A stretch of 64,000 nt of DNA, taken from positions 1 to 64,000 of the IMG/VR virus record IMGVR_UViG_3300050821_013777, one strand, 5' to 3'. The notes below the pieces were generated by a model. The model had not been told where the DNA came from. It saw only the letters and a program-made list of their open reading frames with translations, and ran no database searches. The DNA comes from a virus. The stretch's first letter is position 1; each line of letters opens with the position of its first letter. Shown one piece after another: positions 3,287 through 54,326 of this stretch. The position numbers and the translations under genes were made by a program.

Positions 3287-3538
3287 TCATGACGAAGCGC
3301 TCCCGGCGTGCTTGGCGCGGAAGGCGTCGGCTTCGGAGCCGAGAGTCGACCGGCACCAAGTGCTGCCCTCGTCGGCGTACTCGCGATCAGCTTCGAGACG
3401 CGGACGGACCTCCACAGTGAACCCGGCCGGGTGCAATCGCACTACGCGCGCCAGATACACCCCACCAGCCACCAGCTCGCCAATGTCGTGTGTGTTGTGA
3501 ACTAGGATCGCAGTGTCGACTGAGATGTGACTCGCCAT
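3287..3538 (-). CDS. DEGxTW-family small protein
   Basis: GGAGG SD; contains YADEGSTWCR. Confidence 0.65.
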   Translation of the reverse strand: MASHISVDTAILVHNTHDIGELVAGGVYLARVVRLHPAGFTVEVRPRLEADREYADEGSTWCRSTLGSEADAFRAKHAGSASS

Positions 3539-4927: not shown

Positions 4928-5167
4928 TCATCGTACCTCCGACAGAATCAGCCTGCGCGCGGCTACCAGCGCGTCTCGCGACTCTTCATCGCCTCGGCAC
5001 CAGACGTAACCTTCATCACTGAGCAGGGCGAGACCCGAGATCGCGCGCGTGTCACCGCGCCACAGAAATGCGGTTGGTCCAGTACGCTCTACAGTTCCTG
5101 GGACGACTGCAGGCTCATGAAAGGCAGGCGCGGCGAAGATCTTGTCGCCTTCGACGACGGCGCTCAT
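4928..5167 (-). CDS. DEGxTW-family small protein
   Basis: SDEGYVWCRG..DALVAARRLILS. Confidence 0.7.
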   Translation of the reverse strand: MSAVVEGDKIFAAPAFHEPAVVPGTVERTGPTAFLWRGDTRAISGLALLSDEGYVWCRGDEESRDALVAARRLILSEVR

Positions 5168-5589: not shown

Positions 5590-5999
5590 TGGGAAGACTC
5601 CTGCAGTAGCCGCTGCGAAACGAGATGGCCGAAGAGCTGCTGGCCGATGGGAGTGAGATCTGCGAGGTAGATGGAATCGGGTCCGTCCGGTGCGCGCACG
5701 AGCTGAGAGTTCTGCCTGGTCGTGAGGCGCCCGGTGATGAGCGCGGCGAGATGCCAACATGGTGAGGGGAGTGTCTCGCCGATCGGCCAGCAGATGTACT
5801 CGCCGGAGCCGCAGCTGCAACGAAGCGTCTGTCGCTTGTACTTCCGCGACGGCGGGTAGAGCGCGATGTCGAGCGGACGCAGATCGACGATATTTTCGTA
5901 GCGTATGTCCTTGTCGGATGGAACCCAGTACGTGGCCACGAGCGCGTAGCGAGAAACCCGCCCCGACTTCGTTACGTACGCTCCCCGGCGACGACTCAT
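5586..5999 (-). CDS. SWIM-type zinc-finger protein (paralog 3)
   Basis: RCSC...PCWHL; LTPIGQQLF; ends SQRLLQESSQ. Confidence 0.7.
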   Translation of the reverse strand: MSRRRGAYVTKSGRVSRYALVATYWVPSDKDIRYENIVDLRPLDIALYPPSRKYKRQTLRCSCGSGEYICWPIGETLPSPCWHLAALITGRLTTRQNSQLVRAPDGPDSIYLADLTPIGQQLFGHLVSQRLLQESSQ

Positions 6000-6289
6000 T
6001 GAGATGACGCATGCAGGAGATAGGCGGCGATCAGGGTGCTGCGCGTGAGGAGATCTTCATTCATCTCCCACTTGATGCCACGCTCCTGCGCGAAACAGAC
6101 TGTCCTGTAGCCTCCGTCACCGATGTCGTCGAGCTGCACAGCGAAGGCGATCCAGCCGTAGCTGTTGCCGTTGCCGTTGCTCACCTCGCTGCCGAGGACA
6201 GTTACGGACCCTGTGCGCGTCTCGACCGGCGAGTCGGTGGGCAGATAGATGGTCGACACGCGCGACCCGACGACGACAGGGAGAGCCAT
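5996..6289 (-). CDS. Divergent DEGxTW-family protein
   Basis: VGSRVST N-terminus, QERGIKW, TLIAAYLLHAS. Confidence 0.6.
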   Translation of the reverse strand: MALPVVVGSRVSTIYLPTDSPVETRTGSVTVLGSEVSNGNGNSYGWIAFAVQLDDIGDGGYRTVCFAQERGIKWEMNEDLLTRSTLIAAYLLHASSQ

Positions 6290-22565: not shown

Positions 22566-22785
22566 AGCGCTGGCTCCTCCTGCAGCCAGGGATGATGGAT
22601 GATGGACGAGGCGCTCGTGCTGACGGACGACGAGCTTATCGCGACGCAGGCGATCTGGAATGACGAAGAGGATGTAAAGAAGATTCGCGCCGCGACGAAA
22701 GGCGACTGGGTCGTGACCAACGAGGGCTTCGCGATTCGCATCGCCGACGAGCCGCTCTCAGGCGAGTACAGGATCCCGCGCTGAT

Positions 22786-22912: not shown

Positions 22913-22982
22913 GTCGGCACCTCTCCTGCAGTCCTGGCTGTGGGGAGATCGGGGAGTCCGGCCCCCGAAGAGGAGACGAAAG

Positions 22983-23477: not shown

Positions 23478-23506
23478 TCGCTCGACGATCATGCTAGGCT
23501 CCTGGC

Positions 23507-26697: not shown

Positions 26698-26773
26698 GGG
26701 CCGGGGGCGTCAAATTGGCTGGCGGACCGGCGATTTGCAGGCGAGGGGCACAGACAGGTATCCTGGTGAGAAG

Positions 26774-30554: not shown

Positions 30555-30836
30555 TCAGCGAGCCCGCCCGAGCAGCGCCCTGATCTCACGTACGCCAGTC
30601 GTGCCCTCGAAGCGATGCATCTTGCCTGTCGAGTCCATCACAATCGTCGTCGGCGTGGCGCGCACCTTCATCTTGTCGCCGAACGCTGTCTCGTGCCCAC
30701 CCTTGCTGACGTCATAGATGCCGAGCGGATGGGGGAAGCCGTGCGCAGCCTGCTGCAGCTTCGGCATGAAGTCGTGGCAGGCACCGCAGCCGTCTTGAAT
30801 GAACACGAACGCGGCGGGGCGCGGTCGAGGCGGCAT
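30555..30836 (-). CDS. Thioredoxin-like protein
   Basis: FVFIQDGCGACH (CxxC) and VRATPTTIV cis-Pro motif. Confidence 0.8.
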   Translation of the reverse strand: MPPRPRPAAFVFIQDGCGACHDFMPKLQQAAHGFPHPLGIYDVSKGGHETAFGDKMKVRATPTTIVMDSTGKMHRFEGTTGVREIRALLGRAR

Positions 30837-31099
30837 CAGGCGGCGCTCCGTGCGAGCTGAGACGCAGCGAAGAGCACATCTCGCGATTCCTTGCTGACGT
30901 CGCGCGACCACGTGAGCCCCTCGTCTTCGTAGTCCCAGACCGGAGGTATGTTGAAACCCTTCGTGGCGATCGAGAAGCAGCGGCGCCCGCCCAGACACGA
31001 CGGGTTCAGCACCTCGACACCGACGACCCCGAACTGCATCGCCACGGCGACAAGCTGTCCCTGTTCGAGCAGGACTGCAGCCGGAGCCTTGTTGGCCAT
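30836..31099 (-). CDS. DEGxTW-family small protein
   Basis: EDEGLTWSRD..VLFAASQLARS. Confidence 0.7.
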   Translation of the reverse strand: MANKAPAAVLLEQGQLVAVAMQFGVVGVEVLNPSCLGGRRCFSIATKGFNIPPVWDYEDEGLTWSRDVSKESRDVLFAASQLARSAA

Positions 31100-33402: not shown

Positions 33403-33528
33403 GCGCGATCGATTTTTCTGTGCGTCCGGCGAGCCGCTGCTCCGGCGCAGGTGACCAACTTCGGCGGCAAACCCACAAAGAGGGGGACCACACCGGCTAA
33501 GCCGACCCCCCTCGAAGGAACAACTCAG

Positions 33529-34622: not shown

Positions 34623-34655
34623 TCGAGAGCTGAACTAGGCTCGATCCGAACGACA

Positions 34656-34700
34656 AGAAAACCCCCGACGCTCGAAAGAGTGTCGGGGGTTTTCTCTTTT
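34656..34700. terminator. Bidirectional intrinsic terminator
   Basis: AGAAAACCCCCGACGCTC-GAAA-GAGTGTCGGGGGTTTTCT with A/T tracts, between convergent genes. Confidence 0.85.
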
Positions 34701-36009
34701 ACAGCCCATTCATCCCAGGTGGATACGGGACGCCTTTTTTACCGAACAGTTCGGGGTGCTCTTCTTGTAGATGTCGTGCGAGTTGTACGGCGTGCTTGTA
34801 GCGTCTCCACCCAGCGACGATCGCGACGCCTTGCTCAGTCAGCTGGCCGTTCTTCAGCAGACCCCAGCGGCCGAACGCACCTACTGGCGCGCGTACTCCT
34901 CGATCTACTTCGTCAAGACGTTCAGCACGCTCGCCGAACGCGAGAAGTAGTCGAACGCGGTTCATGGAGTGGACGAAGGCCCTTGCGTCGAGGAGCTGCA
35001 GCATCTCTCCGGCGCGCAGTGTGATGTGCGTGCCTTCATCAGTGTTTCGATGGTAGCTGCCTGCCTCGAAGGTCCAGCCGAACGCCTCAGCGAGCGCACG
35101 CTTGACAACTCGGTGCTCAGCGGCGTGCCCTGCGAGACGCAAGTCCTTGCTATTCTTTCCGTCTACGAACGCCCCGTCCCCGTCTAGCCATCCGAGCGCG
35201 AATTCTCGTGCAGCGTCGGGTGAAGGGAACGGCGCAGCGAAGATCTGCGCAAGCGCGACGCGCGCTATCCGCAGCAGCGGGCTCGACTTCCGCACGTGAA
35301 TGATGCCAGCATTTTCGCCTCGTCCAGGTGCGCGAGCGCGCTCGGCTACAATCTCGACGCCAAGAGCCTCATACTTCTGGCGCGCGTGCACAGCAGGTTC
35401 GTCCCAGGCGTGCAGCACCTCCAGCGAAAGTCGTGATCGGGGCAGCCCCCACTGGGCGAGCAAATCAATCGCGTGAGCCAGCAGTAGTGGGTTCGTGTTC
35501 GCAAAGGTGAAGTCGACGGCCTCTTGCCCCTTCGTTCCCTCAGCCTGCCAGAGACCTAGCACACGATAGACGGCCAGTGGTGGCGGAACACGGGTCAGCT
35601 CGAACGGCGGCTCGTGCTGGTTCCAGATCGACAGGGCCCCCCCTGCACCATCGACGGGAAAGTAGCTCTCGTGCGTGACATGTGGCAGCCAGTCGAAAGC
35701 ACTGTCTGCTCGGGGCCGCGCAGCGTACGGCTCGGCGCTCTCCGCCTCGACGTGCAGTACGGTGCCGCGCTCGATCCCCGGCGCGCAGTATCGCGGCAGC
35801 GTGACATCGACGGACGCCCGCGACGGCGGCCGGCGGGCGTACGCGAAGAATGGCGTGCTGCTGTTCACACGCAGACGCAGCCACCCTGGCGCCTGAAACG
35901 TCCCATCGAGCGTCCTGTATTCAGCGGGTATTGTCATGCAAGGCGACGTCCCCGTACCAACATTCGCTTTCTTTCCCTGGAAATACGCGACGACGCTGAA
36001 CTTGACCAT
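34699..36009 (-). CDS. Free-standing LAGLIDADG homing endonuclease (two motifs)
   Basis: VYRVLGLWQAEG..FTFANTN and REFALGWLDGDG; antisense insertion in the structural operon. Confidence 0.75.
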   Translation of the reverse strand: MVKFSVVAYFQGKKANVGTGTSPCMTIPAEYRTLDGTFQAPGWLRLRVNSSTPFFAYARRPPSRASVDVTLPRYCAPGIERGTVLHVEAESAEPYAARPRADSAFDWLPHVTHESYFPVDGAGGALSIWNQHEPPFELTRVPPPLAVYRVLGLWQAEGTKGQEAVDFTFANTNPLLLAHAIDLLAQWGLPRSRLSLEVLHAWDEPAVHARQKYEALGVEIVAERARAPGRGENAGIIHVRKSSPLLRIARVALAQIFAAPFPSPDAAREFALGWLDGDGAFVDGKNSKDLRLAGHAAEHRVVKRALAEAFGWTFEAGSYHRNTDEGTHITLRAGEMLQLLDARAFVHSMNRVRLLLAFGERAERLDEVDRGVRAPVGAFGRWGLLKNGQLTEQGVAIVAGWRRYKHAVQLARHLQEEHPELFGKKGVPYPPGMNGL

Positions 36010-36130
36010 TTGAAGGTAAGTTTAGCACCGCCGTCAATCGCCCGTCTGTGGTCGATTACACGAAGCTGGCTTTCCGGAGCAGTCGGGCCAGTTTGCCTTC
36101 CACCCCGCACCCGTCCTATCATCGCTTTCT

Positions 36131-36625
36131 ATGAGCGTCGGCGACATCTCTCCTGGTCTCGAAGCGATGATGGTCCAGCTCGGGCCGTGGATTCACCACA
36201 TCAAGGCGGCCCTCGATCCGCTGCTCGGGCAGCCGATCATCCGCATGCCCTATTCGCTGCCGCTCGCGCAGGCGCAGGTCATCCCGCCGGGTGGACAGAA
36301 CGTCGTGCTCAACTCGACGTCGTTCACCTTCAACCTCGAATGGCCGATGGAAGTGCACGAGGTGAAGTTCTCGCAGGACATCGCGCACACCTACCGCGAC
36401 TGGCAGGTGTACATCCAGGATCAGACGTTCAACCAGCCGCTGCAGAAGAACGCGTCGTCGGTGGCCGATCTCGTCGACGACAACACCGGCAAGTGGGTCT
36501 GGCGGTTTCCCTGGACGATTCGTCCGAAGGGTGGCGCGATGAACGTGGCCGTGAACAACCTCGACACGGTGAACCCGATCACCGTCGACATGTCGTTCCT
36601 CGGCTTCCTGATGATCCCACGGTAG
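36131..36625 (+). CDS. Putative second (small) jelly-roll capsid protein
   Basis: 164 aa all-beta pattern ending VDMSFLGFLMIPR; TTGCCT-17-TATCAT promoter upstream. Confidence 0.55.
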   Translation: MSVGDISPGLEAMMVQLGPWIHHIKAALDPLLGQPIIRMPYSLPLAQAQVIPPGGQNVVLNSTSFTFNLEWPMEVHEVKFSQDIAHTYRDWQVYIQDQTFNQPLQKNASSVADLVDDNTGKWVWRFPWTIRPKGGAMNVAVNNLDTVNPITVDMSFLGFLMIPR

Positions 36626-36630
36626 TCGCG

Positions 36631-37092
36631 ATGGCCGAAGGCCGTTCATTCTCTGAGCTGGCAGGCAGTGGGGTCCTTGGCGGCCCGCGCGCGGGCTCGC
36701 GCTCGACACCGAACCAGGTCCCCACACCGAACTCCGAGCCGCTCGGCGCGAAGACGGGTGCACCGCCACGCGTGCGCTTCTACTCGACGAAGATCATCCC
36801 ATTTACTGCGATCGGCGTGCGGGGCGCTGAGCCGACGCAGATCATTCCGCCGACGCCGCCAAATCGTCTCATCACGCTGACCGCACCGTTCGTCGGGTTC
36901 ACGATCTACATCGGCGACTCGGGCGTCTCTCCTACCACTGGACTGGCACTGCCGCCGGGCCGTGACTATCAGGCGCAGCTGGTCGGTCTGCAGGAACTGT
37001 ACGCTGTGACGGACGCACCCATCTATATGACGCTGCAGATTCAAGTGTCGCCGATCCTGTTCGCGGAGCGTGAGCGAAAGACCGAGCTGTAG
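36631..37092 (+). CDS. Beta-sandwich putative minor capsid/vertex protein
   Basis: TIYIGDSGVSPTTGLALPPG..ELYAV pattern. Confidence 0.55.
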   Translation: MAEGRSFSELAGSGVLGGPRAGSRSTPNQVPTPNSEPLGAKTGAPPRVRFYSTKIIPFTAIGVRGAEPTQIIPPTPPNRLITLTAPFVGFTIYIGDSGVSPTTGLALPPGRDYQAQLVGLQELYAVTDAPIYMTLQIQVSPILFAERERKTEL

Positions 37093-37104
37093 GAGCGCAC
37101 GCAG

Positions 37105-37692
37105 GTGATCCCCCTGGCGTTGCTCGCGATGACGGGACTGATCGTCGCGGCCTACAAACTGACGAACGACCACAATCTCGCGCGCATCGCTGCTGGCACA
37201 GGGCTGCCGCTGCAGTACGTACAGTTCGCGGCGAAGGCAGCCCACGCGAATGGGGTGCCGCTCGAATGGGTCCTGGCGACGATCATCGTCGAGTCGAAGG
37301 GAAACCCTCGTGCTCGCGGCGACGCTGGCGGAAAATCTGTAGGATTGATGCAGGTCAACGTCGTGGCGAACGCAAAGGTTCTGGCGAACGCGGGTGTGAC
37401 TTCCACACAGATGTTCGATCCGGCTACGAATATCCGCATCGGCACACAACTACTCGCCGGGTTCAAACAGCGCGTACTTGATGCGCTCGTCGGCCACGCA
37501 CCGTCGCTACCACTCGACGAGTTGACTCGCCTCGAATACAAGGGGCCAAAGTCCATCGAAGGTGCCATCCGAAGTGGCAGGAACCCGCTCACGGCGTATC
37601 CTGACGCGCCACAGGCCGTTACGCGTTGGCGAGAGGCGCTTGCGACGGTCCGAGCAGCAGCTGGACCGCAGACGATTCGCGTCTTCTCGTAG
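37105..37692 (+). CDS. Membrane-anchored lytic transglycosylase (SLT domain)
   Basis: N-terminal TM; IIVESKGNPRA, VGLMQV, FDPATNIRIG. Confidence 0.9.
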   Translation: MIPLALLAMTGLIVAAYKLTNDHNLARIAAGTGLPLQYVQFAAKAAHANGVPLEWVLATIIVESKGNPRARGDAGGKSVGLMQVNVVANAKVLANAGVTSTQMFDPATNIRIGTQLLAGFKQRVLDALVGHAPSLPLDELTRLEYKGPKSIEGAIRSGRNPLTAYPDAPQAVTRWREALATVRAAAGPQTIRVFS

Positions 37693-40283: not shown

Positions 40284-41393
40284 ATGTCCATGGCCGTACT
40301 ATCAGAGTTGATAAGATTCGATGCTACCGAGCGGTCTGCCTCGCGAGTCAACAAGCCAGAAGTTTCGGAAGCGCTGAAGGATCTTGCCGCCCTACTGAGA
40401 TTGGGTAAATTCAAGACCCAGCGCTGGCGCGACGAGCTGCCGTGGGACGAATCCTACGTCAAGGAGGCTGTCGCCATCGAGCGCGTCCTCCAGCCCCACC
40501 GCCGCGCCGGCTTGGTTGGGGCATCGGCCGCAGCTCCCGCGGGGCTTGAAGAAGCGGGGTTCATCTGGCGGCAGATCCTGCGGGGAAGCGATGTACAGCC
40601 CTTCGATCCGTGCGCCGATAGAGGTCCCTGTACTAAGAAGGACAGATATTACGTCGAGCATGTCACCATCTCGGTCGATCACCCCGACTCTATCCTCCGA
40701 GCGACCCGATCTCCTGTTACGCCGCTGGCCAACATTAGGAAACTCGCCGACGCATTCTGCTTCGTAGCCATGCCCCTGTGGGCGCTCGATCCGCAGATCT
40801 TTACCAACGAGATAAGGCGCTCAGTGGACGCCTTCTGGGACCTCGAAGATCTCAACTTGGACGTCTACGCCCTGGCGCCCCTATCCCTATACTCCTTGGC
40901 TGGGCATGTCGCCAGTGAAGCCGGTACCGAGATGTACGCCCCGCCACCGTTACAGCAAGTAGTGGTGGGCCTGCGGATGAATGTCCCCATGTTCCGCTCT
41001 ATGCAGATTGATGTGGCCGACCTGCGGAAGGACATGGAGCAACTCCGCGCTCGGGTCGACAAGTTGGAGGAGACCACCCGTAGTATGCAGCGGCAAATTG
41101 CATCAATACAGGAGAGCTTGGCTTCAGTACAAAATGAGGTGGCCGCCCAGCGCTTGGAGATCCTTAATCTGTCCTCCCTGCTCTCCCAGGCCCAAGCGGC
41201 GCCGACCTACTTCGGCCAAGACCCGCTGCTGTTCGCAGTACCCCGGGGTACCATGCTCGCGACGGCCAACGTCCAGGCCATCCTAGGCCCCTGCTGGGGT
41301 GCCGACATTGATGATGCAGTGGTCACGGCCGCGGGGTTCCGTCCCAATAAAGCTCTCCGCGCCAAGTACACCAAATCGCTGAGGTGGGCATGA
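40284..41393 (+). CDS. Unknown 369-aa protein with a long coiled coil; atypical codon usage
   Basis: Heptad segment VADLRKDMEQL..LSQA; more A/T-ending codons than neighbours. Confidence 0.7.
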   Translation: MSMAVLSELIRFDATERSASRVNKPEVSEALKDLAALLRLGKFKTQRWRDELPWDESYVKEAVAIERVLQPHRRAGLVGASAAAPAGLEEAGFIWRQILRGSDVQPFDPCADRGPCTKKDRYYVEHVTISVDHPDSILRATRSPVTPLANIRKLADAFCFVAMPLWALDPQIFTNEIRRSVDAFWDLEDLNLDVYALAPLSLYSLAGHVASEAGTEMYAPPPLQQVVVGLRMNVPMFRSMQIDVADLRKDMEQLRARVDKLEETTRSMQRQIASIQESLASVQNEVAAQRLEILNLSSLLSQAQAAPTYFGQDPLLFAVPRGTMLATANVQAILGPCWGADIDDAVVTAAGFRPNKALRAKYTKSLRWA

Positions 41394-41587
41394 GTCCATA
41401 CGAAGCGCGGCTGCTTGTACGAGCGCTCGACGCTTTCATGGACGCTCGAACGGAAGCCACCCGAACAGCACTCACGAAAGTGTTGGAGGCTGTTCCTCTC
41501 GACCGAAACTATCGTGGAGGGATGCTGCACCTGGAAGCTCTCCATGAGCAGCATGAGAAGGAGCCGTACTGAACTCCCTTCTAGCGA

Positions 41588-42330
41588 TCAGCGCGGCACG
41601 ACGCAGCGGCGGAAGAACTTCTCGCGAGCCTCGCCGAGCGCCCGGCGACCGCCGCCGGTCTTGCCGTGGGCCTCGTGGGCGCGCCCCAGAGCGTTCAGGG
41701 CCGCGGTGCAGTGGCCGAAGCCAGCATTCGAGATGACCTCGTTGGCGTGCGTCTCGACGAGCTGAGAGCGCTTGGAGCGACGGCGGCGGGTCACTTACTT
41801 CACACAGGAGCTTTTGAACACCGAAAACGCCTTGCTGGTCAGCTCTGTACGAAGCGAGATCTGCCTGCCGCCGGCTCGGCGTTCGCTCTGGGCGCGACCC
41901 ATGTACATCGCCATGTTGTGCAAGTAGGAGAGTGCCGCTGCGCACGAACGATCTTTGACAGCCGCGATGGCGTTGCCTGCAGCCGCCTCAGCTTCATGGG
42001 CTGCCGCATCGAAACGTTTTGTGTGCTCCTCCGCGCTCGACCCCAACCCCCGCCGCCGACGCTTCACTTGCCGCACGCCTCTTCAGCAAGCCCTGCCGCT
42101 TTGTGCAGCCGGCTGCCGCTGAACCACAGGGCGGCCGCGCCGAGCAGCGACAGCGCCGCAGGGCCCCACCCCTTGTGGAAGCCCCGGTAGATCCCGTAGC
42201 CGCCGAGCCCGAGGCTGCCAAGGCGGGTGACGCCGCCGGCAACCTTGAGTGCCGTCGCGTTCGGGCAGGAGGGCATCGGGCCGCCCAAGAGCTGGACGTC
42301 GGGAGAGCCGCTGATCGTGTAAATCTCCAC
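41588..42330 (-). CDS. Three small genes: two basic CxxA..FxxxC proteins (41588-41794, 41795-42067) and a 2-TM protein (42064-42330)
   Basis: Coupled ORFs; poly-Arg N-termini. Confidence 0.6.
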
Positions 42331-42510
42331 GAATCAGATGGTACTAGGATAGTGGGTTGGCGTGCAACTCTTCGGCTTCGACGGCAGGCTGTCCCACCTC
42401 CACCACGCTCATGCCGGGCACCAAAATATTAAGAGTGATCGACGCGCCCGACCCCACGGTACACCTTGCCGTCGATCGCGGTGATTTTGTCGCCCGGCGC
42501 CCGGAGCATT

Positions 42511-45500
42511 TCAGTGGTTCAGGACTACGCGGGCTGCGAAAGTGTTCTGGCCAATCACGCCAGCAGGTCCCGTCGGCCCGGTTGGACCGATCGGGCACGG
42601 CTGCCCTGACTCCCAGAGCTTCTTGGCTGCGAGCAGCACCTGCACGTCCTCAGAATCTTCTGCGTGTGCGCCACGGACCCACGAAATGCCCTCATCGTGA
42701 TCGTAGGCAGGTACGATCGGCGTCGCGGCGCGGACCTGCGGCTCGTCTGGCATCCAGTAGAACCCGATCGCTTCTTTGTAGTCGGGAGGCGCTGCTAGTA
42801 GTCCCTCGGTGACAACGCTGCCGATCACTATCTGCCCGCTGACGAGCCCAGTGATCTTGCTGTCGCGCGCCGGTCTCACTCGGCGACCTGAGCCACTTGC
42901 ACCACAGCGTTGCCGCCTTCGAGCCTGTAGTCGAACGAGACGACCACCTTGTCGTCCTCGCTGGCCACGTCGCAGTTGCTGTCCTTCATGGCCTTGAGCG
43001 CGCGGTCGCGGAGCCTGCCGATAACCGCGAATGCCTTTTCTGTGTCGGCGCGATCGGCCTCGGCGATCGGGATGGCCACGTCGTCGGCGATCAGGTGCAC
43101 GTCGTCGTGCACGCGGGTGATGGTTGCGTCGGAGGCTCGCTTCGTGGCAGGCCGGAACACCATGTTCGGGGATTATGCCAGGCTCCTGGCTGAGGCGTCA
43201 AGACGGTAGGCGGCGAGGAGAGCATCGGGGTTGTCCCAGCCCTTGGCCCAGACCGTGCCCTGCGCGGCGTAAGACAAGACCCACCAGTCGGTGCCGCCGA
43301 CCACGACAATAGGCGATCCATCTGACGTGTGCCCCTCGACGATCCCTTTGAGGACGCGCCAAGAATTCCAGTCGTGCCCACCGAATACCAACAGCACGCG
43401 CTCCCCTGCCTCCACCGATGCCGGATGCAGCGCCACCTACGCCGACCACTCCAGCATGAACGCCGCGAGTAACGACTCCCGTCCCGCGGCGCTCGTGTCT
43501 CGGCTCCAAGTCACGCCCTCATCGCGCACGCGCAGCGCCGCAGCTGCAGGATCGTGCTGGCCTGCTCGACAGTTGAACCAGTCGCCGTCGACGTCGTCTG
43601 GGCGACTGAAGCAGGCCACTATGTCTGCTTCTAGGATTCGGGGATCGCGATCAAAAAATCGGCTTCCTTCATTCACGATCACGATTCTGGTGCCTGGATG
43701 CAGGTCCATCAACGACGCCGAAAGCTCGAAGCGTTCTTCGCAGGGACGGGCCGAAATCGCGGTGGCGCTGATGGACGTCGCAGCTGGTTGCGCACGGTCA
43801 TGTCGTGCCAGTCCGCGACGGCGTCGCTCAATCCCTTCATCGCGTCGGTAAGCGGATCTCGATCCTCTCGCGCGAGCATGTTCGCCGCCTTCAACGACTC
43901 GACTTCGCTACTCTCCTCGCGGTGATCGCCCCGAATCCAGGTGATACCCTCATCAGCCACAAGTAGCGTCCCTGATTTGTGCACGTCGTAGAAATGGTGC
44001 CAGTCGAAGCGTCCAGACCGCTGCAGCTGAGTCGTCGGGGCAGCTGCGCGCACAACCTTACCGTTGTTGCACACTATGATGATCGTGAAGCCGATCATCG
44101 ATCGCGCTCTCCTGCAGAGAACTCGGCGTCCCACTGGTCGAGGTTCGCGACCCATGCTTCGCGTGACATCTGCCCACGCATGTACAGACCATGTGCTTCT
44201 TCCAGACCTATCGCCTTTGGCCCGCGCAGCTTCCACGCAGCGAGCATCGCTTGCGCGTCCTGCGAATCGTCACCGTGCCAGCCATTGATCCAGTCGATGC
44301 CCTCTGCTCCCTCATCACGCGCGGCGCCATGCCTAATGCCACGGAGAATCACCCCGTTCTTGATGCGCGTGACGAGACGCTGTGCGGAGTCACTCATTGT
44401 GCTGCCTGGGGCGGCTCCTCTTCGTCGGTGTCGATCTCGCCGGCCTGCATCTTTGCCTCGGCTCGATCAAATCCGGTCATGAGCTGTTCGACGCACGATC
44501 GGCATAGTCCAGCGAACGCAGGTATACCGTTGACGATGACCTCCCTGAGTTCGAGGCGCGCGAGCAGCTCCGCCGGCTGATCGCACATGGAGCAGATGCA
44601 ATCGAACTCGTCACTCGGGAGGAGAAAACGCAACTTCATGTCGCTCGACCTCACGGTTCGCTGTTGGTGAGCTTCTGTACAGCGTCGACTACGACGAAGT
44701 CGGACTCGGTACGCTCGCCGCGCACCCACGTCGCACCCTCGTCGGCGAGCTGGAAGTAGTGGTTGAAGAGTGCACCGCCCGGAAGGCGCAACTGCACGAA
44801 CATCCGTGTGCCGTCGACGGTGTGCACCTTGCCGATGCCGAGCACGCCGCCGCGTGACCGCGCTGTGATTATGTCACCCTGTTTGATCATGCTGCGCTCC
44901 TTGCCAGTTTTGCCGCTGCGAGCAACGCTCGCGCTTTGTCATCCCACGCCTGCAGCCACCCGCGTACTCACGTCGCACCCTCGTTGGCATCATCCTCGAA
45001 GCCGCTGCGCAAATCAGCGTCGGTCCACATGAACGAACCAACAAACTGATGCCCACATACCTCGCCGTGGTACAGCCGGCCTGTGTGCTCGCCAACGACG
45101 GTCACCTTCGTGCCGTTCGCAGGGCTGTTCACGCGCTTGCCCATCAGCGCACCAGCCCCTGTGGGATGAGCTTGTCGTCCCAATAGATGTCGTCGTCTAA
45201 CCAGTGGTAGGAATCGTCGTACCAATCTTCATCGTGCAGGAATAACATCGACGACTCCCTGTTTCCTGCGAGCGCAAAGGCGGCCAACATCGTCGTCACG
45301 TCTTCGCTGTCGATGTCTGGCCAACCGCGAATCCAATAGATGCCCTCGTCACGTCCGTCACAGTCGAGCACGAACGAGCTGATCCCCGCGGTTATCTCAG
45401 CGCCTACGTAGAGTACGGCCTGTTGTTGGCAGAAGCGCGCTCGCATCACGAAGGTCGAGCCGTCTGACAGATACACAGCAGCGGTAATCTTGTCGCCAGC

Positions 45501-46813
45501 GTGGAGGCTCATTCTGCACTCCGTCGAAGCCGCCAGCTCGCGAGCAACGCGTCGACTTCAGGTGTGCCGCGCTCGTGCCAACCACGAATCCACGTCGCGC
45601 CCTCGTCGGCGAGCAGCGCTGTTTCAGCGTAGCCCCACGAGGTGCCCCAGCGGAACCTTCCACGGTTGTCGATGTCGACGGCGCCGCTGACGTCGACACG
45701 ATGTACGAAGCCGCCATTACTGACCGCTGTGATGTACGGCCAGCCTGTATACTTGTCGAACAGCAGATGAGGCAGCGATGGCTGCACTTCCTGATCGCGC
45801 GTGCTCATCGTCGGCGTTCCGCTGCGCGCTTCAGGACCTCGGCCCATGGACGCAGCTCAAAGTCGTGTTCTCCTTCGTGCCCTTCAGGCAGTGGGCACGA
45901 AACGTAGTCGTAAGCTGGCCCGCGCGCGTTGCAGTCGCCGTCGATCTGCCGATACTCGTTCACGGCTACAAGCACGTGACCTGTGTGGGATTTGTAGAAG
46001 TTTGGATCGACGTGGCCGATCTCGCCCGGTACCGAGATGGAGATCTCAGTCCAGCTCTTTGTCATCGACGCGGCGACATCAGCGATCGTAGCGAGCCCGT
46101 CGCGGAACTTGATTAGGTCGCGGCATGTGCCGTCGCCGCGATTGAGGTGCAGCCCAGACTCGGCATCGCAGTCGAGGCAACGCACGTCCCAGTAGGTGCT
46201 CACGCTGCGCTCCTGGCGAGCAGTCCAGCAGCACGGAGCGCAAGAGCTTCAGGTTCGGTTGGTCTGTACCATCCTCGAATCCAGGTCACGCCTTCGTCGG
46301 CAAAGTAGCGCGAGCAAGCCCAGCCGCCTTCGCCCACTCCGCCGTTTTGGGCGCTTTCAATCGCCGCGTCGAATCCCTCGCGGAGAAGATCCCGACCACT
46401 GACGCGCGCCAGATATATACAGCTGTCTTCCGCGTCGAAGAGCGTAATCCCTATGCCTAGTACCAGCGCGCTCACGGCTCGAAGCTCCCAACGAGGGCCC
46501 GTGTCGCAACGAGCGCCTCGGTGTCATCGACCCAGCCTGGCACCCACGACACGTCTTTGTCGGCGTAGCGGTGCTCAGTCACAAGCCGGGTGATCGTGTG
46601 CTCGGCCTTGAACGACACAGAGCCGAGCGCCACGATGTGCGCGTGCCCGGCGCGGTAGGTCCCGCGAAGAGCGTCATCCGCGAGGAGTGCTGTGACCCGC
46701 GAGACGACGATAGTGACCTGCTGGCCGAGGAAGAAGCCCGGCGGCGGGTTGACGATCTGGGTGCGGGCTTGGGTGGTGGGGCGCCCGAGCCGGCCTGCTG
46801 GTCTGGTTATCAC
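42511..46813 (-). other. Tandem array of 11 DEGxTW-family paralogs: 42511-42879, 43173-43436, 43437-43712, 43709-44098, 44095-44397, 44651-44890, 44887-45144, 45144-45512, 45509-45808, 46200-46475, 46472-46813
   Basis: Each has a GxxI/V beta-rich N-region, a DEGxTWxRGW-like motif and an ALLAAxxL-like helix; three unrelated small genes are interspersed. Confidence 0.85.
44887..45144 (-). pseudogene. DEGxTW-family gene with in-frame TGA at the conserved Trp
   Basis: Reads NEGAT*VRGWLQAWDDKARALLAAAKLARSAA*; TGA at 44968-44970; the distal stop forms an ATGA overlap with the next gene. Confidence 0.8.
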
Positions 46814-47060
46814 CCTGCTGCCCTTTCGTTGACCGCTGGGCACGTGATGCATCGAACACGGGTAGGTGCGAAGGTGGGCTTGCGCGAGATGATCGCGCGC
46901 ATCGGGTTTTTGGCGAGCGGGATGGAGACGGCTTTGTAGCACCCGCATTCCAGCGTCAATATCCAGCACTGACCGCCGCCGCGAGTGTCGCGCGTCTCGA
47001 TGTGCACGACGTCGCGCCAAGGACGCCAGTTGCCGTTTTCGTCCTTGCCCAGGCCCATCC

Positions 47061-47513
47061 TCACGTCTCGTTGAACGAGCCGGACAGCTCCTGTCGCGCG
47101 CCAGCGAACGCGGCGAAGCGCTGCTCGATCTCCATCGACTCGGCGAAGTCGTAGCCGAGCCCGAGGCGTAGCAGGTGGCGCACGGTGCCCAGGAAGCCGC
47201 TGATGCCCTGCTTGGCCTGGTACTTCTCGATGGCCGTCTTGAGGCGCGCTTCCATTCTGCAGCCACGGGTCGGCTCGTCGAGCGCCTCTGTGTCGAGCGC
47301 GTTGCCTGGCGACCAGCCGAGCTGCGTGCGCAAGAGAAAGCGCGCAGCGGCTGCCAGATCACATGATGGAGGTGTGCTTTCGTCGGTGCAGAAGTGCTGG
47401 CGGGCGTACTTGGTCAGCGCCTGGCCGGCTTTAGGCTCCAGACGGAAGCCGGGGATGACGTTGCCACCTTTGATGTGCTCGTCACGGCGACTGTGGGCTC
47501 CGCGGAGGGTCAT
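47061..47513 (-). CDS. Tandem ribbon-helix-helix-like regulator
   Basis: Internal repeat GFRLE..ALTKY..ARFLLRTQLG / GCRME..AIEKY..VRHLLRLGLG. Confidence 0.6.
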   Translation of the reverse strand: MTLRGAHSRRDEHIKGGNVIPGFRLEPKAGQALTKYARQHFCTDESTPPSCDLAAAARFLLRTQLGWSPGNALDTEALDEPTRGCRMEARLKTAIEKYQAKQGISGFLGTVRHLLRLGLGYDFAESMEIEQRFAAFAGARQELSGSFNET

Positions 47514-48124
47514 GGGGCTGCGACCAGCGGGTTCACAGTGAAGTAGTCTTCGCGCCCATGGACGCCGGCCCCGATGATGCGCAGGAACGACCGGCGCGTG
47601 TCGCGCTTCAGCGGGAGGCTTTCGTGAGGGGTGAGGATTCCGATCTCGCACAGCTCGCCGGCCTTGAGCACTTCGGCATCGCGGTACGGGTAGTCGTCCG
47701 CCACGTGGCCGATGTCGCCGTCCTCCGACGTGTCTTCGTGCTCTGCGTTCCAGACCGCGCAGCTGTCGTCGATGTTGCTGGCGATCAGAATGCGCACGTC
47801 GCGGTCCAGTGTGACAGCTCGTCGGCCACCCCATGTCGGCGGACCACCACCCCACCCATAGACGCCGCGAATGATGCCGGCCTCGGTGTGCAGCGCCCGC
47901 CTGTGCTTCGCTCGCGCGCCTCGGTGAGGCGTCCCCGCCTGTGCCAGCGACTCGTCGATGGTCAGGAAGCCAACGTCGCCCTTCTGGATGAACACCGACG
48001 CGACGATGTCTCGATACGCCGCGTAGGCGTTGGGTACAGAGTCTGGCTCGCCCTGGACGTACGGCATCATGAGGCACCGAGTGCCGGTGTACTTCGGAAA
48101 CTCGACTGCGCTCGCGGTCTTCAT
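47510..48124 (-). CDS. Putative 2OG-Fe(II) oxygenase-fold protein
   Basis: LHTE (HxD/E), distal PHESLP and RSFLRI. Confidence 0.6.
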   Translation of the reverse strand: MKTASAVEFPKYTGTRCLMMPYVQGEPDSVPNAYAAYRDIVASVFIQKGDVGFLTIDESLAQAGTPHRGARAKHRRALHTEAGIIRGVYGWGGGPPTWGGRRAVTLDRDVRILIASNIDDSCAVWNAEHEDTSEDGDIGHVADDYPYRDAEVLKAGELCEIGILTPHESLPLKRDTRRSFLRIIGAGVHGREDYFTVNPLVAAP

Positions 48125-48570
48125 CGCTTGCACACCAGCTTCGTGAGGTCGACGATCTCGCGGGTGCTACTGTCGCCGTCGACTGTGACGATGCCGTCGT
48201 GCCCACGCGCTGCGACTTTGCAAGAGAGTGCTTTGCCCCGGCCGCCGAGCGCGCGGTGCAGCTGCGCCTTCCAGCTGTTGTCGTCGTAGCGGATCTCGCC
48301 CGACGTGTTGAAGGAGAGCACCAGCGGGTTCTTGAAGTGGACCTCGCCCGCCTCCCAGCCCCGCGGCAGCTCGCCTGACCGCTCGGGGCTGTGCAGCATG
48401 TAGCGGCCTGCCGGCTCGATGTCCTGCTGGTACGTCGGGCCGAGCTTCGGCGACGGCGTCGTGCTGCGAACGAAGCGAACGGTGGCTGGGCGGCCGGTCT
48501 CGAACCGCACCCCGTATTCGGTCGCGGCGGCGGTGGGCAGCGAGGCTCTCGGGACGCGGGCTTTGGCCAT
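48121..48570 (-). CDS. Possible ADP-ribosyltransferase-fold protein
   Basis: KNPLV..GHDGIV..EIV pattern seen in phage ART-like domains. Confidence 0.4.
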   Translation of the reverse strand: MAKARVPRASLPTAAATEYGVRFETGRPATVRFVRSTTPSPKLGPTYQQDIEPAGRYMLHSPERSGELPRGWEAGEVHFKNPLVLSFNTSGEIRYDDNSWKAQLHRALGGRGKALSCKVAARGHDGIVTVDGDSSTREIVDLTKLVCKR

Positions 48571-48623
48571 GCCCCGAATTCTAGCCCCGATCCGCCCGCG
48601 GCCGCCATCCTGAACAGGCGTTT

Positions 48624-48677
48624 AGTAACCCATAGGTTACTTTTTATCTTGTCAACCCTATAAGGTTGCAGTACGGT
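48624..48677. promoter_or_regulatory. AT-rich divergent control region with two palindromes
   Basis: AGTAACC-CATA-GGTTACT (48624-48641) and CAACC-CTATAA-GGTTG (48653-48668) at the main strand switch. Confidence 0.6.
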
Positions 48678-48686
48678 GACCCCAAG

Positions 48687-51600
48687 ATGCCGCGGAAAAC
48701 GAAGTCGGTCAAGAGGGGGAGAACGAACCCCATTCGCGAGAGCATCCAAAGGGCTCTCGCCGATGCCGGGCTCCGCAACGACGCCCTCCAGCTCGTCGAG
48801 CAGCTCGCGCTGTACTGGATCACTGAAGGCACGTCCGGCGACGAGCCCGGTGCCGCGAAGGGAGCCTACGAGCGACTGGCGCGCCACGGGTACACGTTGA
48901 ACAGCACCAGGACGCTGCTGTACCGCCCAGATGGAAGCGAGGTGGTGCGATGAAGCGGAAGGCGCATTCAGGCGTGAAGGGCAAGCCGCGGGTCGATTGG
49001 CGCTGTTCGCACGGCAATCGGATCACACCTGGCAGCGACGGCCCCTGCGGCTGTCACGTGATTGCCGACTCGGTAGTCCTGCAGGTGAAGTTCGAGAAGC
49101 TCGTCGCGGAGGCTGCGCGCCGCGGGATCGCTGTTGTCGCTGACTCCGACGCCATGGCGCTCAGCCTCCGCGACGTCGTAGATCGCGGCGACGATCTTCG
49201 CCGGCTCGGCGACATCGTGCAGGTGCACGGCGCTTGCGGAGGCATGACCGGTAGCGGTGGCGGCCACCCACACGGAGTGTATTGATGGGCTGGATTTCTG
49301 ACCGCCACATGAAACGCGGCGGATCAATCGGGCCCGGCGGTCTCGGCGCCGACAAGAGGGGCGCGCCGCTGCGCAAGGTCGTCGCCAATCTCACCGGCTA
49401 CCTCAATATGTTCCAGGCAGATACGGTGCTGCTGGAATGCGGGCACGAGGGGAAGTCCTGGGGCGGTAGCCGCGCTCGTTGCGTGAAGTGCAAACAGCTC
49501 GCTGCTGCGGCGAAGGGGAACATCTGATGGCAAAGAAGAGACCGACCAAAGGAGTGCGCGACCAGCAGGAATTCTGTCCGGTCCGCGACAATCTCGGCGT
49601 CCAGTGTGAGCGCGAGTCCGACCACGAAGGCAAGCACGCCTATGACTTGGCGACTGGCGGCTCACACCAGTGGTCGGGCGGCCTCATTCCTCTCAGCGTG
49701 TATGCTGCGCTTGAGGCACGCACCGGGCTAGTCGTCTCCGATTTGTTGTACCTTGCCCGCACCGCAATGCCCGATACCTGCTTCGCTACTAACGACCGGG
49801 TGCGCCGCGGGCAGAAGCTCCTGGAGATGGTCGGGTGGAAGGCGGTTCGATGATCGCCAAGCACGATCCGAGTGACGGGAGGGTGCACGTACGGACGCGT
49901 GGCGCACCGATCAACGCTGCGCTGTGCGGGAAAACGGGACAGACCACCGTCAGCTCGGCATCCGGCTGGTGGGGACCTGACGGCAAGGGATGGTCCGATG
50001 TCTGTCGCGAATGTCACCGCGTCGAGCACAAGCTGAAGGACGTGGTCTCGTGATCCCCGGCCAGCGCTGCACGCGCGTAGCGGAACACAAGGGCCAGCAC
50101 AGTCACGCTCTGGCTGAGGATGTCGATTGGGTGTTCTTCTTTGGGAAGCATGAACGCTGCACGTACGTCGAGCCGCCAGAGCAAGGCGCACCGGAGGGGT
50201 TGATGAGCGTGCCGATGCCAGCGCTCCAACCGGCTCCAGCCCCATCGTTGGAGGAGGCGCTCGCGCGCCTTCGCAGCGCCGGCTGGATGGTCGCCGTGCA
50301 CAACGACTACCGCCAGGACGGCAAGCTGATGACGTTCTGGCTCTTCACGCGCGCCGACGAGACCGGGAAGATGGTTGCCGTCAAAGGCGAAGGTCCCACC
50401 GATGACGAAGCGCTGGCACAGGTGTACCGGCAGGTGACGGGACGATGAGGAATCGCAGTCTCGGCTACCTGCCGCTCGGCACCAGCAAGCTGCCCATTCA
50501 GATCGAATGGACACCCCGCGGGCACGCGAACGTCAAGCCGGCGAAGTGCCCTGACCATCCACGCGCTGGTCAAGTCGCCGACCTAACGATGAGGCGGCTA
50601 ACGATCTCGTGCTTCGCTTGCACGCAAGTGCTGCTTATCGTCCCTGGACCTTTTCGCGTAATAGGGAGCGAGTGATGAAGAAGACCAAAGAGAAGCCCAC
50701 CTGGACGAAGCGTGACTGGACGCCCGTCCGCAACGGCGACGCCTACTGCTCTCCGGCGTGCGGCGGCGGTCCGGTCGTCTGCTCGATCAAACGCTACGAG
50801 CACGCTGTCGATGTCGCCAACGAAGTCGCACGCGATCTCGGGCCAGGTTGGAAGCCTGTTGTGACTGAGAATCTCGGGTGGCACGCCCGCGTGTTCTCTC
50901 CTTGCGGGCGCATCAGTATCTCGTTGCCGACGCTGCCCAATGATAGCGGGTACACAGCCTTCCTCGGACCGAAAGAGATCCAGCCCGCCGGCAAGTGGGC
51001 CGAGCATGGACGCACGCCGCGAAAGGCGATCGAGAACGTGCTGAACGCCGCACGCCACGACCTCGGGCTGATCGAGAAGACGATCACAGGTCTGGAGATT
51101 CCGGTCGCACGCCAAAGGAGAGTGACTGCGTGAGCCGCTTACCCGGCAAGAAGATCCGTACCGAGCGATTCAAGCTCAAAAGCGGCAAGGTCGTGGACCT
51201 GGAGCTGCGCCTGCTGGACGATGGTCAGTTCTACATGCAGGTCGAGCGGACCGGCTACCGCAGCGCGAAGCTGGAAGACCTGCGTGCGGAGGTGAGGCCC
51301 CTGCTGGAAGCGACCAACACCATCGCCTGGCGTCCTGTCATCGTCGTCCACTACAGCAAGCCGGGCGAGGACGGGCAGCACTGGATCAATGGTAATCACG
51401 TCGACAAGACCTACGTCACCATCGGCTTCAACGCCGGCTGGATGTCGACTGAGCCAATGGACGACGTGCAGCACCGCTGGCAGTCAGCTGATCCGGATGA
51501 GAAGACCCACGAACTGCCGCCGCTCGATAGCGACTGGAAGAAGAGCTACATCTACCCGGACAACACGCTGCCGTTCACGCCGGATCGTTGGCGGACGCTG

Positions 51601-53603
51601 CTCAAGATCCAAGCCGGGCTCATCGACATTCAAGCGAAGATCGCCGAACTGATGGAAGACGCGACCGGCGCCAAGCTCGATGCGGTGGCGCTGCCCCAGC
51701 TGCTTGAGGCCGTGCCGACCAAGAAAGCGAGAGGACAGTGAGAGAGAACCCGGACGACGAACGACTGTGCATCCGCCTACAGCCCATCGAGGACGGCAAG
51801 TGGATGTGGAATGTTGGCTACCCGCACGGCATCACCTACGAGCACGGCGAGTCGGACAGCCCCGAGAACGCTCTCGCCACGGCGAAGGTCGCGTTGCGCC
51901 TGCTGAGCACGAAGCGATGACCTCCAAATACTTCCCGCCGCAGAACGCGATCAAGACGGGGCGCAACCGAAAGGTCGAGATCACCGTGACCAAGGAGAAG
52001 CGCGGGCGGGTGCCCGATGATGTCACAGCCGAACGGCTCGCCGCGGCCGGCATCATCAGCTCCGACCCGAACGCCAAGCGCGCAAAGTCCGCTGGCAGCT
52101 CCCCTGCGCTGCGCATCGCCTGCCCGGTGTGCGACGCGCCGGCCGGTTCCTACTGCACGAAGCTGGTGGACTACAAACCCGTGCAGCAGACCATCGCCCA
52201 CAAGCGGCGGCGCGAGGAAGAGGAGCGAACGCGATGACCGATAAAGCCCCGAACAAGCCCGTCAAGATCTTCGCCGTCCACACCCGCCTGTACGCGCTCG
52301 ACAGCGACCATCGGTTGTGGCTGTTCGTGTACGGCCGGTGGGAGCGACTCAAGGCGCCGGAGAACGACGTGGGCGAGGAGCTGGCGATCGCAGCGTTCAC
52401 GGCGTCGTACGTTCGTGACGACGTGTGGAGCGGATTCACCGAGTACGCACTCCTGTTCGACGGTCGACTGTTCGAGTCGCACGAGACCTCCGGTACCTGG
52501 TGCGAGATCACGTGATGGCGATAAACGAAGACAAGACCCCTCGCATCTGCGACACCTGCCCTTGGCGCGTAGTGAACCACGGCAAGCCGCACCCCGCCGG
52601 CTGGTATCGCCTATCGAACCTGAAGCGCCTGTGGGCGGGCCTGCGATCCGGGCGGGCGCCTGGCATGATCTGCCACAGCACCGATTCGAAGAATACCGAG
52701 TACGGTGGCGACGCTCCGATCAAGCCGGGGCACGAGATGGAATGCGGTGGAGCGCTCTATCTGCTCATTCGCAACGTCAATGCTGTCGGCGCCGGGCAGC
52801 CGCAGCCAATCCAGCCGCCGCTCACGAAGCGCTGCATTGGCAGGCTCGTGGAGCGGCACATGTTCGGTGGAGGGGTAGCGGTCATCCCCCGGCGAACGTA
52901 GACGACGTCGGCGTGCCATGGAAGGCGGGGGGCTGATGTCTGGCTCGAACGCAGGAACCGGCTGGCCACTGACGTTGCGCTGCGCGAAGTGCAAGCGCGG
53001 TCGGGACTGGCGCCGCTCCGATACGAACGACACTCATCTCATTCGCACGGGGCGAACGAGGCCGTACACAGGAGGCAACTGCGGCGCGCGAGGGCTCAAC
53101 ACCTTTCACGAGTACGCGTGCGCAGTATGTGGCCATGTCGGCTGGAGTCGCCACAACGACGTCGCACAAAAGCCCCTCGCCCACTACGTCGAGATTGTCG
53201 AGATTGCAACAGGCAAGGTCGAGCGGCGTATGGGACCAATGGCAGAGGCCAAGGCTGAGAAGGTCGAGCGTGGGGCGATTCTGCGTATTAGCGACGACTT
53301 CACGACGCGCACCGGGACAGCTGCAGCGCTGGCGAAGGAAGCAGCGCGATGACCAAGCACCTCGACGTGGCCGGCGACACCTATGCAGACATCGTCGTCT
53401 GGCGCTGGGAACGCGCGCGGATGCGCTGGGTATCGAGCCTACGCGATGGCACCGAACTTGTAGTTGCCCTCCAGCGGTTTGGGCGTCGGTCGTTCTGGAA
53501 TCCTTCGATCGACGGGACAGCACTGCCTGACAACGGATTTCACGATCCGGAGGCAGCACAGAAAGCTGCGTTCGCTGCGTGGGAACAGAAGGTCAGTCGC
53601 TGA
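48687..53603 (+). other. Operon of about 18 small coupled hypothetical genes, many Zn-binding
   Basis: Continuous ATGA/TGATG/GTGA overlaps; CxxC, LECGH and Cx5HxGxH motifs; 52515-52901 has a DUF6283-like CxxCPWR..CH..CxG pattern. Confidence 0.7.
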
Positions 53604-54310
53604 TGCCCAAAACAGACCACCTCGCGATCCTGCAGACGCACGAGATGAAGCCGATTATGGATGTCGCGCGCGCCGCAGGCCCCCTCGCCTTCGCGCTCAC
53701 CGCCTGGTGCTACGAATTCGGCGCGCGCACTGCGGAGCCCGGCCTGCAGCTGCTCAAGGACGTCGACATGCGCATCGGCCGCGCCCGCCCGGCGCACCTC
53801 AAAGCCGGCAAGCCCCCCGCGTGGCACATGCTGATGCCATTCTGCCGCGAGGCGCTGCCGGCGTGGCTCGGGGAGCGCAGCTCCAGTTCCTTTCGCCCCG
53901 AGCAGGCGCCCTACCTCTTCCCGAGCCGCATCACAACAGGACGCTGCTATACCTGCGCTGGGTCCGGCCAGCGTCCCGTGCTCAAGCGCCAGGGCAAGCG
54001 CCGCTTCACCGACTCGACGGTCGAGTGCCATCACTGCAACGGTACCGGCGTGCGTTGGGGCGTCGCGCGACAGGAGGTCTACACGATCGTCTCAGGCGTG
54101 CTGAAGGCCGCCAAGGTCGACAAGTCTTGTCGGCACCCGCACGTGCTCCGACATTCGATCATCACGCACCTGCTCGACGCAGGCGTGGCTGACAAGGTGG
54201 TGCAGGACCGCGTCGGACACAAGCAGCTCAACACGACGTTGGAGTACAAGCGAATGACCGAGTCAGCGCTCGCCGAGGTCGAGGCAAAGATGTCGAAGGT
54301 GTACGGATGA
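53603..54310 (+). CDS. Tyrosine recombinase catalytic domain with inserted DnaJ-type zinc finger
   Basis: FGARTAE, HPHVLRHS, VGH, TTLEY; CYTCAGSG and CHHCNGTG. Confidence 0.85.
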   Translation: MPKTDHLAILQTHEMKPIMDVARAAGPLAFALTAWCYEFGARTAEPGLQLLKDVDMRIGRARPAHLKAGKPPAWHMLMPFCREALPAWLGERSSSSFRPEQAPYLFPSRITTGRCYTCAGSGQRPVLKRQGKRRFTDSTVECHHCNGTGVRWGVARQEVYTIVSGVLKAAKVDKSCRHPHVLRHSIITHLLDAGVADKVVQDRVGHKQLNTTLEYKRMTESALAEVEAKMSKVYG

Positions 54311-54326
54311 CAAAGGAGACCCGCCC

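Follow-up and report, generated by a model that had tools for sequence, protein, structure and literature searches.

The window analysed here covers positions 1-64000 of the 121,543-bp record of an uncultivated virus (IMG/VR IMGVR_UViG_3300050821_013777; CheckV completeness 88%, G+C content about 64%). On its minus strand, positions 42511..46813 carry an array of eleven short genes whose products share the motif DEGxTWxRG(W) and which, with further copies elsewhere on the same contig, almost certainly form a genuine multigene family. The family is new, its predicted fold is a common one, and its arrangement as a multigene array is of a type known in large viruses. We estimate a probability of roughly 0.4 that the paralogues are diversified protein-binding modules, which would act on different partners in host takeover or counter-defence. 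Outside the window, the contig has genes for a family-A DNA polymerase, two helicases, a primase, a thymidylate synthase-like protein and a transposase, and from this gene content it was taken to be that of a phage.

Detection and organization of the family

The contig was searched as 2019 stop-to-stop open reading frames (ORFs) of at least 35 amino acids (aa). A regular expression for the motif gave 11 matches among these ORFs, nine of them true family members. A hidden Markov model (HMM) iterated from those nine recovered 16 ORFs at expect values (E) of 1.4e-7 or lower, and the best E in the reversed-ORF control was 2. Two alignments are referred to below: A1, with 17 copies from the window's phage (G000), and A2, the family alignment of 140 sequences with its HMM. 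G001 and G003-G006 denote related records, C280 is a contig of G003, L063 is a 150-kb metagenome contig, and P numbers (P####) denote protein matches from metagenomic cluster representatives.

The A2 HMM retrieved 18 ORFs of the contig at E <= 2.4e-5, comprising 11 in the array, four elsewhere in the window and three beyond it. The count of eleven array paralogues is the one given in an initial reading made without database searches (the sequence-only reading). Five outliers had also been named there; those at 3287, 4928, 6304 and 30836 were significant by HMM, and the one at 5996 is doubtful (E 0.76). The copies beyond the window stand in tandem at 112825-113587 on the plus strand, directly after the primase gene. 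Members are stand-alone small proteins of about 66-140 aa, and the 18 gene lengths sum to about 5.3 kb, or about 4% of the phage contig.

The first of the three tandem copies, at 112825-113022 (L006 1109-1306), is coupled to the end of the primase gene. It is 66 aa long, and a Tyr replaces the conserved Trp (REGIDYILG).

The array region holds 15 genes on the minus strand, running from 47064 to 42511. In that order they are:

46810..47064, minus strand: non-member, Cys-rich, 84 aa; no Pfam match; a GTGA overlap couples it to the first member downstream
46472..46813, minus strand: member, first of the array, 113 aa, short-linker (DKDVSWVPGW..DDTEALVATRAL); E 2.4e-5, the weakest array member; GTGA overlap with the upstream gene
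46200..46475, minus strand: member, 91 aa (DEGVTWIRGWY..ALALRAAGLL); E 2.1e-18; 4-nucleotide (nt) overlap
45805..46203, minus strand: non-member, 132 aa, Cys-containing; no HMM and no Pfam match; L063 orthologue at 57% identity
45509..45808, minus strand: member, 99 aa (DEGATWIRGWH..DALLASWRL), the modelled copy; E 9.2e-27
45144..45512, minus strand: member, 122 aa, acidic/aromatic C-terminal tail; E 2.8e-19; isoelectric point (pI) 4.15; orthologue P0009 at 66% identity
44887..45144, minus strand: member broken by an in-frame TGA; N-terminal piece E 3.4e-7
44651..44890, minus strand: member, 79 aa (DEGATWVRGER); E 2.1e-10; orthologue P0135 at 83% identity
44394..44639, minus strand: non-member, 81 aa, zinc-ribbon-like (CxC..C...CxxC); weak RING-like Pfam row below the cut-off
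44095..44397, minus strand: member, 100 aa, short N-terminal part and conserved helical-hairpin extension (L..A...Y..G..S..AW..NLD.WD..F); E 5.2e-14; subfamily alignment A4
43709..44098, minus strand: member, 129 aa, basic C-terminal tail (..RFRPVP..RRR); E 8.4e-23; pI 9.73
43437..43709, minus strand: member, 90 aa, short-linker (DEGVTWSRDT); E 9.6e-13; orthologue P0029 at 58% identity
43173..43436, minus strand: member, 87 aa, most diverged motif (AQGTVWAKGW..DALLAAYRL); E 1.9e-8
42876..43163, minus strand: non-member, 95 aa, within the array in relatives too; no HMM match; homologues inside the arrays of G001 and L063 (64% identity)
42511..42879, minus strand: member, last of the array, 122 aa, collagen-like Gly-X-Y C-terminal tail; E 1.6e-15; weak collagen rows

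The first three of the four non-members (46810-47064, 45805-46203, 44394-44639 and 42876-43163) are Cys-rich or zinc-ribbon-like. The array had been described as translationally coupled, and ten of the 14 junctions are 4-nt ATGA or GTGA overlaps; spacings at the remaining four lie between -1 and +11 nt. Behind the last member there is a gap of 180 nt. A promoter and terminator scan of 41000-49500 gave counts no higher than those in shuffled sequence. Contigs from RNA libraries (runs X3 and X4) lay over 42466-43139; they covered only the collagen-tailed copy and may represent DNA carry-over.

Five further loci lie elsewhere in the window, one of them the doubtful member:

30836..31099, minus strand: isolated member, 87 aa, short-linker; E 5.6e-8; orthologue P0144 at 77% identity
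6304..6726, minus strand: member, 140 aa, basic helical C-terminal extension (KRAKLPRELRVAAF); E 5.5e-10; pI 10.48
5996..6289, minus strand: doubtful member, 97 aa (ERGIKW...LIAAYLLHASS), adjoining the 6304 copy; full-length collinear alignment, E 0.76
4928..5167, minus strand: member, 79 aa, short-linker; E 3.5e-14
3287..3538, minus strand: member, 83 aa, short-linker; E 9.1e-11

Orthologues of the 6304-6726 copy were found in P0161, P0128 and P0094 at 45-54% identity, and its tail is a KRAKLPRELR helix.

In the copy at 44887-45144 the reading frame is broken by a TGA at 44968-44970 that replaces the codon of the conserved Trp (...NEGAT*VRGW...), a position at which all other copies but one have Trp. 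Past the TGA, a further 26 codons are uninterrupted and run into the following gene with an ATGA overlap. Intact orthologues are present as P0075 (73% identity over the N-terminal part) and at L063 10943-11209. Contigs assembled from the soil runs X1 and X2 have the same letters, so an error of this one assembly is unlikely, although one of these runs may be the window's source sample. We read the TGA as a recent TGG-to-TGA nonsense change. Decoding of TGA as Trp was rejected, since 13 of the 16 listed genes use TGA as their normal stop. Low-level read-through of UGA by tRNA-Trp is known in bacteria.

Scans of all 140 A2 members against Pfam, PHROGs and NCBIfam returned isolated rows only, in one or two members each. 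The family had been described as unrecognised, and it stays so: none of the 140 matches any family of these libraries beyond such chance-level rows. PADLOC assigned none of 17 copies to a defence system, no PDB sequence matched at E <= 10, and no entry of the BFVD viral structure library reached E <= 0.001. The ESM Atlas held no usable match for the window copy; for P0028 the scores were all <= 0.86 and serve as leads only. A full-text literature search, judged by titles and the openings of abstracts, found no description of the family.

A profile search with an HMM built from the copies, which the sequence-only reading had suggested, matched 570 of 1.84 billion metagenomic cluster representatives at E <= 1e-3, 19 of them at E <= 1e-10. 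Among the best 150 of the 570 matches, 149 were 70-202 aa long and carried the same motif, and P0078 (2088 aa) was a repeat-protein artefact. Two domains per chain were seen in a few matches (P0010, P0040, P0067, P0129 and P0140); longer fused forms were sought without success, a result that carries little weight. Where a source was stated, all family matches came from metagenomes, and the sole name attached to them was 'hypothetical protein'.

Predicted fold and sequence variation

The copy at 45509-45808 was modelled with AlphaFold2 from a 140-row alignment. The model had a predicted local distance difference test score (pLDDT) of 85.3, mostly above 80 across residues 21-99, and a predicted template modelling score of 0.70. 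Strands were predicted at residues 25-29, 35-39, 51-55, 61-65 and 73-75, followed by a C-terminal helix at 83-98. On the model, DEG falls just before the last strand, TWI forms that strand, RG(W/H)H..S the turn and E..ALLAA..L the helix. From this predicted secondary structure, we read the conserved DEGxTW(I/V)RG(W/H)H..S.E..ALLAAxxL module as the likely structural core. Four conserved aromatic residues, F52, W54, W73 and W/H77, were seen in the alignment only.

The Foldseek neighbours of the model were PWWP, Tudor, MBT, chromo and myosin SH3-like domains, with a Tudor row at the top (E 0.083); the list also held weak rows for Hfq and Sm proteins (E 0.18-0.62), whose fold has an N-terminal helix; the helix of the family model is C-terminal. 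On this model, the fold is probably an SH3-like barrel of the Tudor kind with an added C-terminal helix, and no family membership is concluded. Sequence identity to the Tudor, PWWP, chromo and MBT domains is 4-18%, and the structural scores lie within the range of chance for common arrangements. The Tudor 'royal family' consists of eukaryotic chromatin readers, whereas the present proteins are stand-alone phage products, and none of the 140 members matched the Tudor, PWWP or chromo Pfam models at E <= 0.01. Of the SH3/KOW-like scaffold put forward earlier, the SH3-like part agrees with the model and with Foldseek; KOW was absent among the listed Foldseek rows, and the KOW profile gave no row in any of the 140 members.

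A second model, of the copy at 44095-44397 (13 sequences), was confident for helices at residues 65-73 and 79-99, and residues 1-38 had pLDDT values below 50. A homodimer prediction for the 45509-45808 protein scored 0.00 against a mark of 0.42, which by the tool's terms is no evidence either way.

A variable body joined to a constant C-terminal module, as anticipated from the sequence, could be measured. Mean pairwise identity among the G000 copies was 0.158 in the 48 profile columns before the motif and 0.379 in the 30 motif and helix columns. For the same two sets of columns the values were 0.165 and 0.429 among the G001 copies, and 0.150 and 0.437 among those of G003. The N-terminal GDxIT strand is conserved too (G in 104/132 sequences, T in 131/140). 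The linker from the Trp to the helix occurs in two lengths, a long form (RGWHxxDSxExxALLAA) and a short form (RGWDTxxAxAL or similar) with 3-5 residues fewer. Between array copies, nucleotide similarity was seen only in stretches of 18-33 nt at the motif (64-89% identity). Targeting by a diversity-generating retroelement was considered and is unsupported, the array being without long nucleotide repeats.

The C-terminal tails differ by orthologue group and are collagen-like, basic, acidic or in the form of a helical hairpin; most members are tail-free. Collagen-like Gly-X-Y tails were found in the 42511-42879 copy and in P0015, P0019, P0070, P0085, P0086, P0110 and P0123. Collagen Pfam rows appeared in two of the 140 members (best E 0.0023), and the 42511-42879 copy reached 13.3 bits against a cut-off of 27.2. 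The basic tail motif of the 43709-44098 copy, RF(R/H)P(V/I)P...RRR in its general form, recurs in P0091, P0123 and L063 11765-12163, and P0118 and L058 1-405 have longer C-terminal parts beyond the domain. The pI was below 7 in 14 of the 17 A1 copies, and the other three were basic (9.5, 9.7 and 10.5). The mostly acidic composition fits protein binding better than DNA binding.

Related phages, age of the family and other genes of the contig

Copy numbers in related phages, a comparison also suggested at the outset, ranged from 1 to 28:

G001: 102.9 kb, terminal repeats, complete; 17-18 copies and one more by tblastn
G004: 94.5 kb, complete; 8 copies
G005: 89 kb; 1 copy
G006: 104.6 kb; 21 copies
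G003:C280 (DASZFS010000280.1): 107.8-kb contig of a Vicinamibacterales metagenome-assembled genome; 27-28 copies, all on C280

On C280, about 17 short-linker copies follow one another at 32982-37414. Because matches run round the contig ends, C280 was taken to be a whole circularly permuted phage genome rather than host DNA or a flanked prophage, and the link to Acidobacteriota therefore comes from binning alone. The 178 ORFs of G000 include 51 in common with G001 and 55 in common with C280, and the DNA polymerases are 61-63% identical. The closest DNA polymerase among 50,697 phage records was only 27.5% identical, and megablast and tblastn searches of cultivated phages with the array returned no match. 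Two soil metagenome runs contained 79-86% of the array's sampled words. tRNA genes were sought as a clue to the host and none was found.

A full-length non-self match at 45-83% identity was present among the stored hits for 12 of the 18 G000 copies. Identity between paralogues is lower, at 25-40%; measured against the first A1 copy, those of G000 reach 23-33%. The array on L063 is collinear with that of the window. Ten of its members are orthologues at 31-61% identity, and the interleaved and flanking non-members are 29-67% identical (57-67% for n42879, n45808 and n42067). It differs in that the first three genes are reordered and the zinc-ribbon gene is missing: tblastn found no counterpart of the 44394-44639 gene in L063, where the orthologues of its two neighbours are only 30 nt apart. 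In the orthologue group of the 46472-46813 copy, mean column identity was 67%, barrel included. When the copies of G000, G001 and C280 were compared by BLAST, the nearest copy lay in the same genome for 11/18, 15/18 and 25/28 copies, respectively. A FastTree analysis of 62 copies from these three genomes showed no clear structure. Synonymous sites are saturated, given protein identities of 31-61% for L063, G001 and G003. Closer relatives are represented by contigs of 127-150 kb, the sources of P0009, P0075, P0135, P0144 and P0163.

Since most paralogues have their own orthologues (45-83% identity), the array is old, with each copy kept. Judged from these alignments, the family is old, every copy appears to be kept by selection, and copy number shifts by lineage. 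The earlier description of an old and diversified expansion is thus upheld by the short nucleotide repeats, the orthologues and the low identity of the body. As the paralogues are each conserved across related phages, they do not form a fast-churning library.

Several other loci of the contig were recorded. Outside the window but within the phage contig, positions 116643-118448 (L011 12643-14448) encode a transposase of 602 aa (phrog_506, E 1.7e-65). At 53579-55109, a 243-aa protein with an integrase-like C-terminal part is followed by a ParB-like protein, a pair that may hint at a temperate or plasmid-like lifestyle. On the minus strand at 8418-11017, a MoxR-like AAA+ ATPase (9812-11017) adjoins a DUF2201 metallopeptidase-like plus VWA protein (8418-9773), and both have counterparts in G001 and G003:C280 (42-60% identity). 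Genes at 17086-24811 and 59034-60143 of the window and at 74301-76310 of the contig code for several glycosyltransferases, a DegT/DnrJ/EryC1-type aminotransferase and a glycosyltransferase-methyltransferase fusion, and this set suggests phage-encoded sugar modification of some target.

The 421-aa protein at 26513-27775 resembled a transglutaminase core and an intein splicing domain only weakly, with scores below the cut-offs, and is 47-48% identical in G001 and G003 across about 205 residues. The 287-aa protein at 33451-34311 is the best conserved among the three phages (82% and 71% identity) and has no PHROG match; it may be a major structural protein.

Proposed function and alternatives

In the proposed scheme, each protein would form a barrel of five strands closed by the C-terminal helix, with the constant module providing the last hairpin, the turn and the helix. 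Strands 1-4, the loops and the optional tails vary between paralogues and are maintained within each orthologue group. The genes belong to extended operons in which small genes are translationally coupled, at a distance from recognisable replication genes. Each paralogue would bind a different protein partner, of host or phage, and the set together would serve host takeover or counter-defence, its copy number growing or shrinking between related phages.

Two known systems are comparable. The poxvirus and asfarvirus multigene families (ankyrin, MGF) consist of tandem diverged paralogues whose copy number varies by virus, and they are generally read as host-interaction genes. The present family resembles them in its many diverged tandem paralogues of one small scaffold and its variable copy number, and differs in fold, hosts and virus realm. 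Phage anti-defence gene clusters are, like the present array, runs of small acidic coupled genes of unknown family in non-structural regions; they usually encode unrelated proteins, whereas 11-17 paralogues of one family are found here.

Several points weigh against diversified protein binding. No homologue of known function bears on the proposed role. The 45-83% conservation of orthologues is unlike that of a fast arms-race library, and in one orthologue group the collagen-like tails suggest that at least that member has a structural role. The second model was poor in the domain, so the unity of the fold across paralogues rests on sequence profiles and one good model. Finally, the evidence from RNA consists of the library contigs over 42466-43139, which may be DNA carry-over.

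The copies could instead be regulators binding nucleic acid or RNA polymerase, in the manner of CarD/TRCF, UvrD/PcrA or SH3-like chromatin proteins, and tune transcription or DNA packaging. This would account for the Hfq and Sm proteins in the Foldseek list and for the three basic copies, but is unlikely overall: acidic or near-neutral proteins make up 14 of the 17 copies, the Foldseek rows concerned are no better than unrelated rows, and no CarD, KOW, Tudor or Hfq Pfam match was found in any of the 140 members. The RNA polymerase-interacting domain of CarD/TRCF and the C-terminal domain of UvrD/PcrA have no sequence relation to the family and are without the C-terminal helix module and the DEGxTWxRG motif, and their structural rows do not stand out from the others. 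Eighteen distinct regulators for one machine would also be hard to motivate.

A virion-associated role, in which the constant module would dock small decoration proteins or short variable-tailed fibres to a common site on the particle, is improbable. The Gly-X-Y tails of the 42511-42879 copy and its seven relatives, the longer C-terminal parts of P0118 and L058 1-405 and the restriction of the RNA-library contigs to the collagen-tailed copy are in its favour. Most members, however, are tail-free, and the neighbours of the arrays are small genes without a known function rather than recognisable structural genes. Apart from the Gly-X-Y repeats, no PHROG structural family was matched, and the failure to find longer fused forms is a further, weak, argument. 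Collagen-like phage tail fibres combine long Gly-X-Y stretches with a fibre domain, whereas here the tails are short, present in a subset only, and no fibre domain was found.

A targeting-adaptor repertoire, which is also a doubtful proposition, would use the variable barrel face of each paralogue to recognise a different host protein, for instance components of different defence systems, while the constant hairpin and helix docked all of them to one shared effector or host machine. If this were true, the docking target might be a protease or a polymerase, for example, and one activity would be re-aimed by duplication and diversification of a 90-residue module; the copy number of 1 to 28 would then track the defence load of the hosts.

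It is quite improbable that the paralogues are subunits of one hetero-oligomer, for example an Sm/LSm-like ring of paralogous barrels joined by the constant module. That module is common to all copies, Sm and Hfq folds are among the weak Foldseek rows, and two-domain fusions occur in the five matches given above, but a copy number of 1 to 28 between related phages is unlike a fixed stoichiometry and no positive sign of self-association was obtained. Drift of largely dispensable duplicates without function, to which the premature TGA of one copy and the nearly lost motif of the 5996 copy could be attributed, is scarcely credible given the open frames and coupled starts of 17 of the 18 copies, orthologue groups conserved up to 83% identity and the collinear L063 array.

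The family is specific to one phage lineage and marks a clade of high-GC soil phages of about 90-150 kb without a close cultivated relative. It reaches 27-28 copies in one relative and yet is unnamed in any library; it deserves a profile in domain and phage-protein libraries, as its genes are otherwise annotated as unrelated hypothetical proteins. If the paralogues are indeed binding modules with separate targets, they would provide a compact natural scaffold and a route into host takeover by phages of poorly studied soil bacteria.

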